From Sminthopsis crassicaudata (lineage: Eukaryota), in assembly GCF_048593235.1 (NCBI RefSeq), contig NC_133620.1, positions 440,787,261 through 440,851,260 of the forward strand: a stretch of DNA of 64,000 nt, in the 5' to 3' direction. The notes below the pieces were generated by a model. The model saw nothing but the letters and a program-made list of their open reading frames with translations. It did not search any database and was not told the origin of the DNA. Positions 42,601 to 51,108 of this stretch are shown here, piece by piece. Numbering within the stretch: position 1 is the stretch's first letter; each line of letters begins with the position of its first letter. A program made the position numbers and the translations under genes.

Positions 42601-45600
42601 ATTGAAGACTTCTCAGCAATCTAACAAACAGTCCAACTTCTCTTCCCAGCCTTCTTCCCAAGTTTTATTTCTGTTAAGAGTGTCGCCTTAGATCCCATAC
42701 TTAAAGTTGTAGTCTTAGCTTTCTCTCTAACTAGCCCATCATCACATTAGTTCAGAAGGTGTCTGACACTCACCTGCACTAATTATGATCATAATAGCTT
42801 CTAAATTAGTTTCCCAGACTCTCCAATTCCCCCTTCAAAAACCTTCTGGAATATGCCTTCTAAGGCAGAGATCATGCAGGTCATTCCCCTGCTCTAAAAA
42901 AATATTGTTTTAATGATCAAATCAAACTTCTTAGCCTGGCATTCAAGGTCCTCAGCCATCAGGTTCTCACTTACTTTTCACATTATGCCCCTTCAAGTAT
43001 TCTACATTCCAGTCACACTGGACTAAGAGTCCTTGAACTCAGCATGACGTGGCCAAGCCTTGTGCAGCCCCCCCTGGCTAGGATGTGCTTGGAATGCATG
43101 GCTCCTTCCTCATGTTCCCTCCCTGAGATTCTCTAACTCCCTCCATGTCTTGGCTCAGGGGGAGCTTGCTTCCCTGTGGGTTTTCCTTGGAGCCGACAGC
43201 TATCAGGACTTTTCCCCTCCTTCAACACTGGTAGGGGAGATTTCTCCTTCACCAGATTCCCCATCTAGCACATCCCTTCTTTTTGTCCTCTGTGCCCATG
43301 AGCGTAAGCTCTTTGAAAACAGGGATCTTTTGTTTTTATGACTTCCAGTTTACCTTCTATTTGCTTTCCTTTCTTTCCCACACCCATCCCCTATCAAAAA
43401 GCATGACTCAAAAGCATGAGGATGGATACAATTCACCTTACTCTCTCCCAGAATCCTTCCCCACGGTTCCCAGGACCCCCCCTCCCCTCCCTCCATCGCC
43501 CCTCCCCCACCTCACCAAGCCACCGTTATGGCCTGAGCTGTATGGGTTTCTCGCCCTTCTCTTCGGCTCAGGTTCCGGGCAGCTTTCACGACCTCTTCCT
43601 TGGTCCGGAAATCTCCAAGTGACCATTCATGTACGGCAGTCTCCCCATACTGAACCAACCCAACCTGGAGAGGGACAGTTTTGTTGATAGCTCTGTCTAT
43701 ACCTGCCACCCATCTCTGACTCCCACCCTCACCCCTTCTCACCTGTATCTGTTCGGGGTCAATGAACAGCCTCCCCACTAGTCTACGCAAGAAAGTCTGA
43801 ACCTCAGCCCAGGGATAGATGCTGTTAGAGCCATCCAGGACAATGACCACGTCCATGTAGGTGGGGCAGCCTAGATTTTGGAGGCACAGAATGGGGAAGC
43901 TAAAGCACATCAGGGCAAGAGTGTGGGAGCAGTGTCAACAGAAGGGGGCAGTGGCTGAATAAATTGGTACATGAAAGTAATGGGTTATTGTTCTATAAAA
44001 TACGATGAACAGGCTGATGTTAGAAAAGCCGGGAAAGATTTACACAAACTGATGCTGAGAGAAACAAGCAGAACCAGGAATACATTGTATACAATAACAG
44101 CAGGATTGTGAGATGATCAATTAGGAAAGGTTTGGTTCAGTGATCCAAGGAAATTCCAATAAACTTTGGATAGAAAACACCATCTGCACCCAGAGACAGA
44201 GCTATGGACACTGAATGTAAATCAATACCTGCTATGTTTACTATTTTCCTTTTTTCTTCTTCCTTTTTTTTCCCCCTTGGGGTTTTCCCCTTTTGTTCTG
44301 ATATTTCTCTCCCAACATGATTCACAACAAAATGTGCTTTTAAAAAATGAATGTACATGTATAACCAGAAAAAAAAGGAAAAACAATAAAATGAGTTGGG
44401 AAAACCGTGTGGGGGTAGTACAAAGAATATTGGTTGGGGAATAAGAGAATGTGGGCAAAAACCCTAGCTTTGTTTTTTATTAGCTATGTGATCATGAGTA
44501 AGTCTCTTTTCTTTATTTATAAAATGAAAATAATAATAACAACTATTCACAGTGTTATTATGAGGATCAAATAATATTTGGAAAATGCTTAGCACAGTGC
44601 CTGGCACAGAGCAGGGGCTTAAATAGGCAGATAGATGATAAATAAGTAAATGAGAGGTTTCCCTTCTCCGGTCCCCTCCCCACCACTCACGCTGTGCAGT
44701 AGGTGCTAAGCTCCCCCGGGGTCGGAATGAGGCATCCACTTGGGCACAGATCCCAGAACTGTACACAGAAGTACCACAAGCACGAGACCACAGTGGGGCA
44801 CAGGCCTGAGGAAAGAGAAATGGCAGGAACGTGTAAGGGCCCTTTAAATGGGCGGACACAGTGCATCGGGAGATTGAGGCCCAGAAGTAATTTCTGTGGA
44901 CATTAGGACTGCCCTTGGGCGGGATCCTGGCCATATTGAGATAGTTTTGTAATGGGTGACTCTCTCGCTGATTGGCTGTGTGTGTGACCTCACAGGCCCT
45001 ATGTAAGCCCACTGCAGGCAGCAACCGCCCTCTTTAATCTGGCATTCTTCACCCTGGCTTCCCAGCCTGGTGGCCAAGCCAAGATGGATAGCCAAAAGAG
45101 GTAAGGGTTTTGGTAGTGAACACATGGGTCTTCTGACCAGGTGTTCACCAGGGAACCAACAAGTCAGGGCATCAGTTAGGGCATTATGTGAGTAGGTATA
45201 ATAAAGGCTTTTAAGATTACACGTGGCTGTTCTTGAGTGCGCTACCGGTTATTAAGCTATAGATTCAAGAGATTGTGGCCAGAGACCTTAGAAGGCCTCA
45301 GAGGAGGCGAGCCGGGTAGAGCTCACACTGCAGAGGACAGTGGTCAAAGGTACTCTGGTGGGTCTAGGACAGACTAGTAATTGTAACTGCCAGGAGAGCA
45401 CGTACAAATGGCGCTCAACGTGGACGCATCAGGAATTATCAGGTTTTGAAAATATTTAATATTCAGAATTAAGATTCTGAAAGATCCGGTAGAAACGCCA
45501 CTTAAGAGGGAAGACAGAGAAGCAATATGGACCCAGGTAAATCTGGGATCAGGCTCAAGGACACAGCTGAACATAATGCTTATTATATAAAGAGGTTAAA

Positions 45601-48600
45601 GAGCCAGATGGAAGATCTTTTAACAAAGATCACCACTGAAGAACAGCAGGAAGCTTGTAATCAAGCTCCACAAAGGCTATCCCCACACCCAGTAAATAGA
45701 GCTAGGAGAGGGAGCAACCTAGAGCTAATGCGATTGTATGACAGTAGAGAGTATAAAATGCCACAGCAAGAGTTGCTGGAATTGCAGGTTAAACTACAGA
45801 TGGAGATAGAGAAAGAAGAAAAAGCTAGGTTACTACAGATAGAACAGGAAGAGTTCAAACCAGTGGCTGAAACTAAGGAAGGAAATAAAGGAACCACATG
45901 GATTAAAGTTGTAGAAATTCTTCTTAGCGTTTTGTTGGTTTACCTCCTGCATTGTTGTTTTAAGGAATTTATTGATTACTCTTCCATTGAGAAGTTTAGT
46001 TCTTTTTATGTGCAAAGCTCAGGTTTGATTTTAAATCAGCCTTTGGGGAATTTTCCAATTCTTCTTCCCTCTGCCTCACCTTCTTGGGCCAAGGGAGAAG
46101 GGGGAGGAGGAAAAGGAAGGGCGATAATACCATCAGTACTGCCCATTAATCCATTTAAAACTCCTGTGTCTTCATTTCAAAGGACAGGAGTAGGCTTTAT
46201 GCCCCAAGGCAAAAAGGAATTGTGGGGTATTGAGTATAATCAGAAAAGTTTTAAAAATACAGTTCAGTTAATTTCTAAGAAACCTTACAGGGACAAGACC
46301 TTGCAGTTAGAGAGAGTGGAGTTTTATACTTGTAAAACTGCTAGGATTGTCTTTGGAGAGTTGGAACTCCTCTTTTATTACCTCGTGGATTTTCCACTTC
46401 CACAGGTGAGCTTGATTTCCCAACCCCCTACGGGTACTTATAAAACAGTGTTTATGTCTAGAATGGGTTGGAAAATTGTTGTTTTAATCACTAGAATAAA
46501 TAGACAGTGTGTGATCTTTGACCCAGGAGGAAAAGTAATATCAGATTTATTGATTCACACTCCTGGAGTACAATTCGGTATCAGAAACTCAAACTTTGAT
46601 TTTTAGGCAAAAGAATTCAGGGATATAGCCAGAGTGTTCTAGTAAAGTCATTACTGCACAGACTATCCCCAAGATCTCTTCTAAACAAGAGAAGGGAATT
46701 TTGGGATATGTGATTGCTTACAATTTTTAAATTTTGATTTTACATTTTTAAACATTTTTGATTTTACATCTTCAAAGTATTTTGATTTTACATTTTTAAT
46801 CTATTTCGGTTTTACACTTTTAAATTATTTTGGTTTTACATTTTTAAATTCTTTGCATTTTACCTTAGCAATGCACTTCGGGCATACACAGAAAGTGCAG
46901 CTAAGTGACAGACTGACTTTTGTCTGACTTGTTAATCTTTTTGACAACAACTTTGTTTCCACTGTGATGTGGAAAGGCCTGGATGGCATTTGGAAAGGCC
47001 CAAGTTGGGCCCCAGGGACATTCCTTCCTAGGTGCAGATCCAGCAGCAGAGTTCATCCCCACCAGAGACATTTGTAACCTGGGGATCCAAGAGAAGGACC
47101 AGACAACAGTCCAGAGAGACCAGCCAGATGTCCGCAGCCCTTCAGACGCTGATGGCAGCGATGCCCCTCCTGACCGTGACACCAGAGACAGCAGACACGG
47201 TTCCAGTGTTGCAGCTGAGATGGACTGTTTTGGGTGATACACGATATAAAGACTGTAAATGGACAATGGGCCTGCTTGCTTCTCCCGTGGCCACTTACCA
47301 TATGGTGGCCTGGGGAGAGGCTTTGCCCTATGCTTTCTATTGAAGGACTATGCTTTTAAATTAGTGGGTGAAAAACCAACACACCCACCTGCCATTGTTA
47401 TTGAGACAATGTTACTGGACATGACTTTGCTTATGTGCACCTGTGAAACTAGAATTGTTCTAGAATTGTGAAAAGTGCAATAGAGAATTGTGATAAACTA
47501 GAATTGTTCTAGGATTGTGAAAAAGTGCAATTGAGAATTGTGATAAACTAGAATTGTTCTAGGATTGTGACAAGTGCAATTGAGAATTGTGATAAGCTAG
47601 AATTGTTCTAGAATTGTGACAAGTGCAATTGAGAATTGTGATAAGCTAGAATTGTTCTAGGAGTGTGAAAAGTGCAACAGAAAATTGTAAGAAACTAGAA
47701 TTGGTCTAGAACTGTGATAAATGTAACTAGAATTGTGACAACCTACCTACTGATATTTGTTAACTAGAATTGTGATGTTTTACCTTGTTGACTTCCCACC
47801 TCAGTGTTGACATCCTACCTCATTGGCATCCAACCTCTTTGGCTTATTATCTCGAGTATGACTTTGATGAATGGGTTGAACACTTGGGCCACTGTTGAGC
47901 CTGGTTCTCATTGTCATACTTCTGTTTACTGATTTGCTGCTTTGTACCTCCTTGGGCATAACACTGTCATCTCATGGATCAAGTGAACTATAGCTGATGG
48001 TAAAAGTTTAGCTTGGTGAGATGTGCGGTTCCCGCAAAACAAGAGAAAGGGAATTGTAAGGGCCCTTTAAATGGGCGGACACAGTGCATCGGGAGATTGA
48101 GGCCCAGAAGTAATTTCTGTGGACATTAGGACTGCCCTTGGGCGGGATCCTGGCCATATTGAGATAGTTTTGTAATGGGTGACTCTCTCGCTGATTGGCT
48201 GTGTGTGTGACCTCACAGGCCCTATGTAAGCCCACTGCAGGCAGCAACCGCCCTCTTTAATCTGGCATTCTTCACCCTGGCTTCCCAGCCTGGTGGCCAA
48301 GCCAAGATGGATAGCCAAAAGAGGTAAGGGTTTTGGTAGTGAACACATGGGTCTTCTGACCAGGTGTTCACCAGGGAACCAACAAGTCAGGGCATCAGTT
48401 AGGGCATTATGTGAGTAGGTATAATAAAGGCTTTTAAGATTACACGTGGCTGTTCTTGAGTGCGCTACCGGTTATTAAGCTATAGATTCAAGAGATTGTG
48501 GCCAGAGACCTTAGAAGGCCTCAGAGGAGGCGAGCCGGGTAGAGCTCACACTGCAGAGGACAGTGGTCAAAGGTACTCTGGTGGGTCTAGGACAGACTAG

Positions 48601-51108
48601 TAATTGTAACTGCCAGGAGAGCACGTACAGGAACGTCATTCCCAGATCCCAGGGCCGGATCTCATTCCCCCTTCTCGAGCTGTTTCCCACTCCCTACCTC
48701 CCCCATAGGGTCTAAACACCATCCATTTGGTCCTTCCCCACTCTCCGTGCCATTAACTTTCTGCACTGCTCCCTCAGTGGACTCCTAGAATGGATTCCCC
48801 ATCGTTAACTTCCACAATGCCCCTCATTCCCACCTCACCATAAAGCCCCCATCCACATCAGTTTTCAGCAGTGACATCCCAAGATGCATGTTCACAGCTG
48901 GACTCGAAGAGTTTCCCAGTGGATAGTCACCTGGAAGTGACAGGGAAGTTGGTGAACACAGGTTTGGGGTCGGGAGTGGAGAGGGAAGGAATATTTAGGA
49001 AGTCATGGGAAGCAATCAAATGTTATTGGGAAGCGGGGAGTTTGAGGAATAAGAGGTCAGGGTCAAAGAGTGGAGAAGAAGGCTGAAAGGGAGTGGCCTC
49101 TGCTTACCCAGGTGGCCCTTGGCACAGGAGGCATTAGGCCGCTCCTCCACAGGACAGAGATACACATCTCCTCTCCTATCTCCGGAAGGTCCATCCCAAG
49201 GGGCACCCACCAACATCCTGTGAGACCAAGGTTGTGCATGAGCATGGCTTCCCGGAGCATAACCCTAAAGACAAGCTGGTCCCAAAGCCAGAACTTCAGT
49301 TTGTGATCACCCCAGTTTATTCTCCAAGATCCCAACTGTCTCATTCCTTCTGAAAGTAACTACATGGCGATTACTCTCCTATTATCTATGGCTCGTGGGG
49401 GATAAATAATATTGGCCCAACCTAAAGTCTATCCTTCTGTTTCCCTACAGGCTTCTCCTTAACCAGCCCCACCCCAGCGCCAGCCCTTTCTCCTTTCTTC
49501 CTTCTCATTCGGGTTCCCTTTGACCATCATGATACCCCGAGTTGTCCCAGGCTTCCCTCACCATCCACGTCCTCCCCCCACGTGCTGCAAGACACTGTAT
49601 CCGAACTCGGCCTCCGGTGGCCCATGAAACAGGCGAGGATGACTATCATCCAAGTTGAAGGAGAGGCAGAAACCTGGGGGAAGGAGGGATGGAGGGAGAG
49701 AAGATCAGTCACGAGGTCAAGGGCTTAGGGGAAGCCACAGGAGGGCTTGGCTAAGTGAAGAGACCTCTGGCCAGGACATGCTGGCCCGAGCCGCTGGCCC
49801 TCTCCTTGTCTTGTCTCTAGCAGCATTTCCATCTGCGCCTGCTGGCCCAAGGGTGTCTTCTTCTACCTTGTCTCCATCCAGATGTCCTGTTCATCCTGTC
49901 TGTGGCTCTTAGCCACAATGACATGCACAGCTGTGAATTCATTCCCGCCCCCGAAATCTCTTTCACAGAATCAATCTAAAGGGTCGGGTTACTCAGCCCC
50001 CCTTTTCCTCCCTGCCCTCACCCAACCTGGGAGGCTCAAACAAAAGTAGGGGAATGGCAGCTTTCTGTAACATCAGAAAAATTCCCCAGTCCCTGTGGGG
50101 TCCAGGGGTTAGACAGGAGCCTGAAAAGGACAGGACACTGAAAGCTGTCTCTTACAAGTACCCCCTGTTTCTCCATCTCCCCATGTCAGTGTGTCTCATG
50201 CAGGCACACACAGATTCCTGTGTCTTCGGCCTCAGCCCCGGAAACCTCAGGATCAATTACCGGGGTGGGGCAGCCTGCCCACACACAAACTTCTCTCTGC
50301 CCCCACCACAGAGGTCCCAAAGCTTCACCACCCTTCTGCCTTCCCAGCACAGCGACATCCCACTCCCTAACTAGGCCCCTGTTCACTTCCTGAATAATTT
50401 AGTCCCCTCCCAGAGACCCCACATCATGTCCTAGCTGGTCCTCTCCTTCCTAGCCCAAGCTCTCTCCAGACTCAGAACGGGTATTTTGGGAAACATAGAT
50501 TATAGGGGAAAGCTAAGATCCCCTTAAACATGGCCAAACCACCCCCGCCTTTTAGGGTTCCCTCCCTACTTCCCAGACCATCCCTTCCCCCTCCTCCCTT
50601 CCTAACAAATGCCTCTCCAGAACAAAGGAGTGTCTCATATGTCTTCAGACCCCCCTGGACACTAGGAAGTCAATAGGTGGGGTGGGACTGCATGTGGTCA
50701 TTGGTCAAATATTCTTAGGATGCCAGCCACTCTGGCCGAGGGGGACCCTGAAGAAAAGGGGCCATGTGGAGCATTCTGGGTGCCACTTTCCAGAAGTCTA
50801 GGCACCAATTCCAGGTAACTAAGCAAAAGCTTCCACCAGCACCACAGGAAAATTCTCCTACTATCATCCTGGGAGAGGAGGGAATAATCTGTAATATGGA
50901 TTCAAAGTCACACTTTTCAGAGCCCTGTCCTTAGGGCTCCCAGCAGCAGGGCGTCTCCTCCCCCCACAAAGGACATTCTTACCCCTAAGGTCCCAGCCCC
51001 CAGACATCCCACACACCTGCCTCCCCACCAAGCCCCAAATGGTTAACCTCCCTCACCTGCCAGGAGCAACACGGGGAGAGGGAGGAGAGGGCTGAGGGAG
51101 AGCTCCAT
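27675..51108 (-). CDS. ITGA10: Integrin alpha-10 (collagen-binding I-domain integrin), 30 exons, 1165 aa, intact
   Basis: Exons (minus): 51108-51057, 49673-49562, 49217-49108, 48930-48839, 44805-44691, 43870-43743, 43664-43516, 39465-39315, 39076-38911, 38584-38511, 38240-38096, 37324-37176, 36988-36845, 36727-36527, 36098-35968, 35735-35569, 35492-35350, 35193-35080, 34825-34740, 34016-33875, 33614-33522, 32683-32607, 32473-32384, 31982-31898, 31717-31604, 31123-31043, 30901-30788, 28603-28508, 28235-28122, 27737-27675. Total 3498 nt, all GT-AG. Signal peptide, FNLD start, MIDAS DGSNS, FG-GAP repeats, TM and GFFARK tail. Confidence 0.98.
33280..33435. other. Assembly gap (156 N) inside a MIR-like SINE in ITGA10 intron 21
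   Basis: Run of N flanked by SINE-like sequence. Confidence 0.99.
37515..37864 (+). mobile_element. WSINE1-type SINE split by a hAT MITE
   Basis: Head ggagcagctaggtggtgtagt at 37515 continues after the MITE as gatcagccctgaagtcaggaggacctgaattc...CORE...A-tail. Confidence 0.8.
37544..37750 (-). mobile_element. 207-bp hAT/Charlie MITE resembling OC1 (OposCharlie1) non-autonomous elements
   Basis: 16-bp TIRs CAGGGGTTCTCAAACT / CAGTGGTCCTCAAACT; perfect 8-bp TSD GTCTAGTG (37536-37543, 37751-37758). Minus-strand start cagtggtcctcaaactttttaaatagggggccaattcactgtccctcagac matches the recalled OC1 MITE left end. Confidence 0.85.
39831..39993 (+). mobile_element. Young WSINE1-type SINE with long poly-A and TSD
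   Basis: Intact head and CORE, pure A-tail of about 23 nt, 13-bp TSD AAGTGCTGAACAA (39818-39830, 39994-40006). Confidence 0.9.
41110..41245 (-). mobile_element. WSINE1-type SINE
   Basis: Reverse complement of head (...ccacctagctgcccc) and CORE, with (TAT)n tail upstream. Confidence 0.85.
43960..44370 (+). mobile_element. Degenerate L1 3' fragment
   Basis: gttattgttctataaaatacgatgaacagg...aactgatgctgag...gcagaaccagga homologous to 24340-24440. Confidence 0.75.
44832..45406 (+). repeat. 5' LTR (575 bp)
   Basis: TGTAAG...CGTACA; GC box (GGGCGG near 44917), inverted CCAAT 44971-44975, TATA-like TATGTAA near 45000, AATAAA 45200-45205. Confidence 0.96.
45409..45426 (+). promoter_or_regulatory. 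Primer binding site, tRNA-Lys(CUU)-like
   Basis: TGGCGCTCAACGTGGACG, 2 nt after the LTR; matches the Lys1,2 PBS TGGCGCCCAACGTGGGGC at 14 of the first 15 nt. Confidence 0.85.
45527..46606 (+). CDS. Unknown 359-aa predicted single-pass membrane protein carried by the LTR element in the gag position
   Basis: Uninterrupted ATG-to-TAG ORF of 1080 nt; strong Kozak (aatATGG); 100 nt after the PBS. Heptad-like segments at about aa 18-42 and 80-110; hydrophobic stretch aa 125-145 ending in CC. No recognisable retroviral motif. Confidence 0.75.
   Translation: MDPGKSGIRLKDTAEHNAYYIKRLKSQMEDLLTKITTEEQQEACNQAPQRLSPHPVNRARRGSNLELMRLYDSREYKMPQQELLELQVKLQMEIEKEEKARLLQIEQEEFKPVAETKEGNKGTTWIKVVEILLSVLLVYLLHCCFKEFIDYSSIEKFSSFYVQSSGLILNQPLGNFPILLPSASPSWAKGEGGGGKGRAIIPSVLPINPFKTPVSSFQRTGVGFMPQGKKELWGIEYNQKSFKNTVQLISKKPYRDKTLQLERVEFYTCKTARIVFGELELLFYYLVDFPLPQVSLISQPPTGTYKTVFMSRMGWKIVVLITRINRQCVIFDPGGKVISDLLIHTPGVQFGIRNSNFDF
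46720..46863. repeat. 24-bp T-rich tandem array, about 6 copies
   Basis: G(A/G)TTTTACA anchors at 46736, 46760, 46784, 46808, 46832, 46856 (exact 24-bp period). Confidence 0.9.
46964..47075 (+). pseudogene. Frameshifted remnant of a betaretrovirus-like integrase C-terminal domain
   Basis: VMWKGLDGIWKGP (46964-47002), then W-A-P-G and, in the next frame, HSFLGADPAAEFIPTRDI; resembles recalled MPMV VKWKDPLDNTWHGP...WGRG...DAARWLPER and HERV-K WIPTRHL. Confidence 0.6.
47449..47775. repeat. 49-bp tandem array (5 full units plus 3 degenerate) with internal hairpin
   Basis: Units start at 47449, 47498, 47548, 47597, 47646, 47695, 47727, 47764; each full unit opens with CTAGAA-TTG-TTCTAG. Confidence 0.92.
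48036..48053 (+). promoter_or_regulatory. Polypurine tract
   Basis: AAAACAAGAGAAAGGGAA immediately before the 3' LTR. Confidence 0.85.
48055..48629 (+). repeat. 3' LTR (575 bp)
   Basis: Same length as the 5' LTR; no difference found by eye; identical 93-aa ORF translations in both copies. Confidence 0.96.

Follow-up and report, generated by a model that had tools for sequence, protein, structure and literature searches.

A young non-autonomous LTR element before ITGA10 exon 5 in the fat-tailed dunnart and its candidate replacement branch point

In the fat-tailed dunnart, Sminthopsis crassicaudata, a young 3.8-kb retroelement lies antisense in intron 4 of the cartilage gene ITGA10, where it parts the exon 5 acceptor from what is likely the native branch point. 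The best explanation of our observations, to which we give a probability of about 0.5, is that the element was mobilised by a helper, that the motif CTTAC at the end of its LTR serves as the new branch point, and that exon 5 is mostly included. The motif is invariant at this end throughout the element's family, and it likely takes over the role of the displaced site. All positions below refer to the window, that is, the whole 64,000-nucleotide stretch of DNA that was analysed.

The insertion in ITGA10

ITGA10 is complete in the window on the minus strand, with 30 exons, 29 GT-AG introns and an open frame of 1,165 aa, and is a single-copy gene. The encoded protein is 96.8% identical to that of the Tasmanian devil, 97.0% to that of antechinus, and 92-93% to those of three other marsupials. 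The join of exons 4 and 5 was found in 16 of the 17 marsupial ITGA10 proteins checked; the 15 members listed from a cluster of 33 included no dunnart ITGA10 model. Splice sites were scored with a matrix trained only on the 28-29 sites of ITGA10 itself. On this scale the acceptor of intron 23 (window 31983, minus strand) is very weak, with a score of -6.4 and no TNA, and this boundary may represent an alignment misplacement or an alternative site. Just upstream of ITGA10, the minus strand carries an open frame (52595-52999) that we take to resemble the last exon of PEX11B.

Intron 4 extends from 48838 to 44806 and measures 4033 nt, or 229 nt without the insert; recomputing both lengths reproduced the growth given in an initial annotation of this DNA. 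The insert itself comprises 3,798 bp (44832-48629). The exons on either side and the parts of the element are as follows.

48839..48930, minus strand: ITGA10 exon 4
48630..48635: right copy of the 6-bp target-site duplication
48055..48629, plus strand: 3' LTR, 575 bp
48036..48054, plus strand: polypurine tract (PPT)
47424..47718, plus strand: 49-nt tandem repeat
46707..46874, plus strand: 24-nt tandem repeat
45527..46606, plus strand: single ORF of 359 aa
45409..45426, plus strand: primer-binding site (PBS), of the same type as in the pol-bearing families
44832..45406, plus strand: 5' LTR, 575 bp, with TG...CA ends
44826..44831: left copy of the 6-bp target-site duplication
44691..44805, minus strand: ITGA10 exon 5, 115 nt

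The insert had been described as a provirus. An LTR pair with TG...CA ends, a short flanking duplication, and a PBS and PPT beside the LTRs were indeed present, as in an integrated LTR retroelement. On the other hand, gag, pol and env were absent from the insert, both in a Pfam search and in a comparison with six pol-bearing loci; the insert is not an autonomous provirus. The 6-bp duplication was seen here and also at other copies of the family, and the PBS is presumably of the tRNA-Lys type. The identity of the insert with a koala ERV was ruled out by the ORF and ITGA10 matches; the phaCin-beta-like element has pol (PMC9231498).

The 5' and 3' LTRs showed no differences over 575 nt. With rates of 2-4.5e-9, as assumed for koala in PMC9231498, this bounds the age of the insertion at ~0.6-1.3 My (95%). 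Close to the right terminus, both LTRs lack one base that most copies have (45397-45406 and 48620-48629), a private variant that predates integration. A second PPT-like tract is present inside the element just after the ORF (46683-46700), and on the gene strand it gives a cryptic acceptor at 46681.

Sequencing runs were searched with a 165-nt query divided into 10 words. At least half of the words matched in 20 of the 24 rows, each row giving the number of words only: seven with all 10 words (six of them flagged as a possible source), four runs of one study with 9 of 10, and nine rows with 5-7. No RNA run was among the 24 rows listed for this query.

The branch point and the splicing of exon 5

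The LTR begins at intron position -27, leaving 26 nt of host sequence before exon 5, exactly the distance first proposed. The splicing signals considered are listed below.

48635..48639, minus strand: ATGAC, displaced native branch-point candidate; its A, 48636, lies at -27 when the insert is absent
47079..47100, minus strand: strongest cryptic acceptor in the element, AG ending at 47079, score 10.7 against a median of 10.2 for real acceptors
46546..46551, minus strand: AATAAA, 130 nt after the cryptic acceptor at 46681
46379 and 45973, minus strand: two further AATAAA
46073..46082, minus strand: strong cryptic donor, GT at 46079, score 11.5 against a median of 8.1 for real donors
44842..44843, minus strand: weak alternative AG in the LTR, score 5.9, by which exon 5 would be lengthened in frame by 36 nt (12 aa)
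44833..44837, minus strand: CTTAC, the proposed substitute branch point, with its A at 44834 (-29)
44806..44825, minus strand: pyrimidine tract left in place, with the acceptor AG of intron 4 (score 12.0, rank 8 of 29)

Within -15..-45 of the empty allele there is no TNA other than ATGAC, and the coordinates given for it in the initial annotation (aaTGAc, with the A at 48636) hold. The insertion shifts this candidate 3.8 kb away from the acceptor. The LTR end does read CTTAC on the ITGA10 strand, a YTNAY match with its A at the proposed position, and in the filled allele the stretch from the last upstream AG (-37) to the acceptor contains no other TNA. CTTAC lies within -18..-45 with no AG before the acceptor, as in a U2-type branch point; more TNA are found at -39 and -40, upstream of the AG at -37. 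When pairing with U2 was scored, CTTAC reached 3 and the native ATGAC 3.5, the median of the best candidates in the gene's 29 introns being 3.0. Motif calls of this kind do not map branch points, because TNA motifs are common (27 of 29 ITGA10 introns); YTNAY in -18..-45 is missing in 13 of the 29.

As CTTAC is the sole TNA past the last AG, has a median U2 score and precedes a strong acceptor, a replacement is plausible. This much of the earlier proposal stands, together with the displacement of the native candidate; what falls away is any special fit of the LTR end to this role. Judged by motif and position, CTTAC has an even chance of being a replacement branch point for exon 5, and a coincidental one. 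We predict that most transcripts still contain exon 5 and that splicing is near normal; the two adenosines, one for each allele, are putative branch points.

The foremost competing explanation, possible though doubtful, is that the filled allele is a hypomorph, which persists because it is young and loss of ITGA10 is recessive. Exon 4 would be spliced to the cryptic acceptors at 47079, 46681 or 46458, with transcripts ending at poly(A) signals of the element or including stop-bearing pseudo-exons; alternatively, exon 5 would be skipped, or transcription from the LTR towards exons 4-1 would interfere. Signals for such routes are present on the gene strand. Beside the acceptor of 10.7 and the donor of 11.5, the element contains cryptic acceptors with scores of 9.5, 8.9 and 8.6, poly(A) signals follow four cryptic acceptors at 79-279 nt (AATAAA at 79-130 nt for three of them), and all six pseudo-exon candidates tried contain a stop. 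Skipping of exon 5 would shift the frame, as had been noted, and the computed stop is at codon 153, within exon 6. Intron 4 has been enlarged 17-fold. Canine chondrodysplasia, a recessive condition, results from an ITGA10 nonsense allele (PMC3783422), and in both mouse and human, the neighbourhood of acceptors is poor in full-length elements but rich in mutagenic ones (PMC3088655).

Against a hypomorph, the insert is antisense, and the exon 5 acceptor has the top score among the 249 AGs in intron 4, outscoring all 248 others. Antisense is the less harmful orientation in mouse, since 20 of 26 mutagenic LTR insertions near exons are in sense orientation (PMC3088655), and antisense-ERV splicing appears to be suppressed in human mRNAs (PMC6466679). 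The intactness of ITGA10 itself says little on tolerance, because the insertion is younger than ~0.6-1.3 My.

Exon 5 might also be spliced normally with CTTAC dispensable, other adenosines of the LTR end or of the retained 26 nt being used, since the choice of branch site is flexible beside a strong pyrimidine tract. We consider this unlikely. The 13 ITGA10 introns that have no YTNAY in the range, and the extra TNA at -39 and -40, speak for it; these two TNA, however, lie upstream of the AG at -37, and downstream of that AG there is no TNA other than CTTAC. Still less probable is a branch point deeper in the LTR that selects the AG at 44842 and extends exon 5 by 36 nt, or 12 residues derived from LTR and intron. 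The frame is open throughout and the TNA at -39 and -40 are available, but the score of this AG is 5.9 against 12.0 for the true acceptor and those adenosines are too near to it.

Compared with these alternatives, replacement by CTTAC remains our preferred reading, and the occurrence of the motif at this site was examined in terms of chance. CTTAC is the reverse complement of the LTR start, and there are 3,236 exact matches to this end in the genome. Those preceded by the PPT number 1,125, and the remainder corresponds to ~2,111 outer ends. When the LTR end was replaced by random host 40-mers, a YTNAY fell in range in 28% of 20,000 trials, and in 19% with no AG before the acceptor; the values for any TNA were 72% and 50%. 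Taking the number of acceptors in the genome as 150-250 thousand, chance alone would place 1.4-2.3 of the ~2,111 outer ends at -18..-45.

An acceptor-like pattern after the motif was found in 40 cases, of which three are PPT variants and one is the ITGA10 locus. There was no excess of acceptor-like sites after the family LTR end, with 37 host-flank AG against 26 in a GA control (p 0.5-0.9, at a background ratio of 1.36-1.72). Thirty of the 40 acceptor-like matches were screened for exons; in seven the frame stayed open as far as the best donor, and exon status was established for none of the 30. The opposite LTR end gave 64 acceptor-like matches, a count that has no denominator. In the PPT variants (L064, L071 and G000:C6:122778412), the 3' LTR's CTTAC is followed at 25 nt by a strong antisense acceptor, with scores of 16.8 and 14.6, and such copies could be potent exon traps. 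In the ITGA10 insert, the second CTTAC with the PPT complement at the 3' LTR was rejected as a cryptic acceptor, the AG scores there being 3.0 or lower.

The notion that the LTR end owes its sequence to shaping or selection as a source of branch points, by which the family would be tolerated before acceptors, has very little in its favour: the motif is invariant, but acceptor-like sites are not in excess, and conservation of the terminus needs no cause beyond integrase attachment, the terminus of a retroviral LTR being the end to which integrase attaches. The fit at ITGA10 would be luck and not a strategy of the family, with survival filtering at most.

The element family, its ORF and its probable helper

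The family comprises at least 1,125 copies with an internal part. A first look at the genome with the 359-aa ORF gave 6,356 candidates; the 113 that were scored, a set biased to open frames, were all 94-100% identical, and most were open. A further 17 copies were picked by position on one contig (C1), with L108 left out. Eleven of these have a frame of 354-360 aa, four have one of 339-341 aa owing to a shared late frameshift, and two are cut short. The LTR pair is without substitution in nine of the 17. Tandem arrays of the element with shared LTRs, at a spacing of ~3,230 nt, were observed at L107, L108 and L099.

Among the 17 copies and the window copy, dN/dS was 1.01 for shared variants (45 N, 17 S; CI 0.57-1.88) and 1.14 for singletons. 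Indel events were counted against the window copy, in lineages that are not independent; inside the ORF, 7 of 10 were multiples of three, and outside the ORF this held for 8 of 35 (Fisher p 0.009). As indels are kept in frame while dN/dS is about 1, this suggests that translation of the ORF matters more than its product.

Relatives of the ORF were found only among Sminthopsis crassicaudata models, where NCBI annotates copies as uncharacterised dunnart genes (eight cluster members, P0001-P0008). The ORF formed one cluster in searches of 5.8 and 1.84 billion proteins. Pfam gave only a weak hydrophobic match, and there was no match to the ORF in Atlas, PDB or Rfam. Residues 126-144 are hydrophobic and the N-terminal part is predicted to be helical; AlphaFold models had pLDDT values of 32 and 36. 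The C-terminal part of the ORF is a separate feature.

46295..46600, plus strand: ORF aa 257-358, homologous to the nucleocapsid-protease interval of pol-bearing ERVs in the same genome

This segment is 39% (E 1e-16, pairwise) and 33% identical to the corresponding segments of two pol-bearing families, and when the element was compared with six pol-bearing loci, only this segment, at the position of dUTPase, aligned. With a profile of the segment, all four PDB matches at E<10 were dUTPases, with weak E values of 0.18-1.6. The Ser-Ser and Ile-Asp catalytic motifs of the solved dUTPases are absent from the aligned columns, and the corresponding segment of the probable helper family gave no homologues. 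From these alignments we call the C-terminus of the ORF a decayed dUTPase-like domain and not an enzyme. The element has no RT; the 6-bp duplication, the Lys-type PBS and the dUTPase-position segment before the protease are marks that are associated with class II (betaretrovirus-like) ERVs.

Genome-wide, 9,033 integrase candidates were obtained. Young pol-bearing families number at least two, and their LTRs differ, at about 300 and about 380-450 bp; these families are ~6-7.7 kb in length, with no frame of at least 200 codons between pol and the 3' LTR. An autonomous element with the LTR of the insert's family (LTR-A) was not found: one of 20 integrase loci held LTR-A, in the opposite orientation, and none of six longer loci did. 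In two of the six pol-bearing loci, a 301-bp LTR (LTR-B) flanks gag, pro and pol frames and no env-sized frame, and the other four carry the LTR of a third family (895/938-aa pol). LTR-A and LTR-B gave only matches of 7-12 nt, with E of 2 or more.

At locus L020, the match to LTR-A ran via the PBS into an inverted PBS and then into the 301-bp LTR-B. This head-to-head LTR-PBS/PBS-LTR junction occurs at 74 exact places in the genome. Among the 30 junctions examined (L129-L158), 18 join LTR-A and LTR-B (11 one way and 7 the other), one joins LTR-A to LTR-A, and the remaining 11 are partial or of another kind; the LTR of the third family is joined to LTR-A in none. Both outer ends were aligned in 12 hybrids, and in these an exact 6-bp duplication surrounds the whole unit in four cases and a near one in two, one has a duplication round a longer unit, and five have none. 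Some single-LTR units (L138, L144) have the target duplication directly at the PBS end.

The most economical account of such units is that plus-strand strong-stop DNAs of both elements primed each other via the self-complementary PBS in one particle, and the hybrid would then have been integrated as one unit. The share of hybrids may be inflated by loss of unstable self-self palindromes. Because 18 of the 30 head-to-head junctions join LTR-A to LTR-B and LTR-B flanks gag-pro-pol, the family is likely copied by the enzymes of the pol-bearing, betaretrovirus-like LTR-B family as its helper. A more elaborate picture is tentative and rather unlikely to hold in full: an undescribed, spreading non-autonomous class II family of over a thousand full-length copies, co-packaged with a helper of unrelated LTR, that would need its membrane-anchored pseudo-dUTPase frame to be translated in order to move and whose branch-point swap in ITGA10 would segregate as a natural test of such a replacement. 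The hybrid head-to-head units would then be a fossil trace of the co-packaging.

Known systems and significance

Mouse VL30 likewise lacks gag, pol and env, is co-packaged with a helper (MLV), and can be mutagenic when inserted in introns (PMC6466679). VL30 belongs to class I, whereas the dunnart element has class II marks and keeps a single long frame open; its link to a helper is deduced from genomic junctions. Mouse IAP 1-delta-1 is a non-autonomous class II element whose sole ORF acts in cis for retrotransposition (PMC6466679), and so sets a precedent for the retention of an open frame. It arose, however, from its helper by a deletion and carries a gag-pol fusion; the dunnart ORF has no gag or pol homology, only the decayed dUTPase-like end, and the LTR is unlike that of the helper. 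ETn has LTRs in common with MusD and no ORF, in contrast to the dunnart element, which has an ORF and shares no LTR with its helper. The resemblance to ETn/MusD lies in being non-autonomous and betaretrovirus-like, with intronic insertions that disturb splicing (PMC3088655, PMC6466679). The MaLR are also a very large non-autonomous LTR group with mere traces of retroviral homology (PMC6466679), but they are class III and ERV-L-related, unlike an element with a 6-bp duplication and a remnant of the betaretroviral pro region. By analogy, the family is best described as working like VL30 with a retained frame like that of IAP 1-delta-1, and as a member of neither.

MEBrv 3, an env-less, IAP-like class II group of dasyurids with a length of ~7.3 kb, is active in S. 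crassicaudata (Harding et al. 2024, PMC11334065). The pol-bearing families of this genome resemble MEBrv 3. The insert differs from it in its length of 3.8 kb, in its 575-bp LTR, compared with 281-486 in Table 3 of that paper, and in having none of the genes on which the screen of Harding et al. relied (PMC11334065); the terms "non-autonomous" and "dUTPase" are absent from the main text of the paper. We did not find the family or the hybrid head-to-head junctions in print, and Dfam, Repbase or a study of devil transposons (PMC4408412) may catalogue the family. Transposable elements are known to supply predicted branch points to splice acceptors, as LTR78 does in an F8 pseudoexon, L1 in GPR143 and AluY in CEP290 (PMC7951965). 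These activate pseudoexons, whereas in ITGA10 the element would rescue a constitutive exon after its own displacement of the native site; branch-point rescue by an LTR end was not found in the literature.

A working replacement branch point, if true, would be a clean natural case of an insertion repairing its own damage. Dunnarts serve as laboratory marsupials in work on the development of the skeleton, and a segregating ITGA10 hypomorph, if that reading proved true, would matter to dunnart colonies. The larger interest lies in the family more than in the ITGA10 site. Gene-based ERV screens miss it. Since nine of the 17 copies have substitution-free LTRs, a main share of new insertions probably stems from this family, and the hybrid LTR units make it possible to match non-autonomous elements to their helpers by sequence alone.
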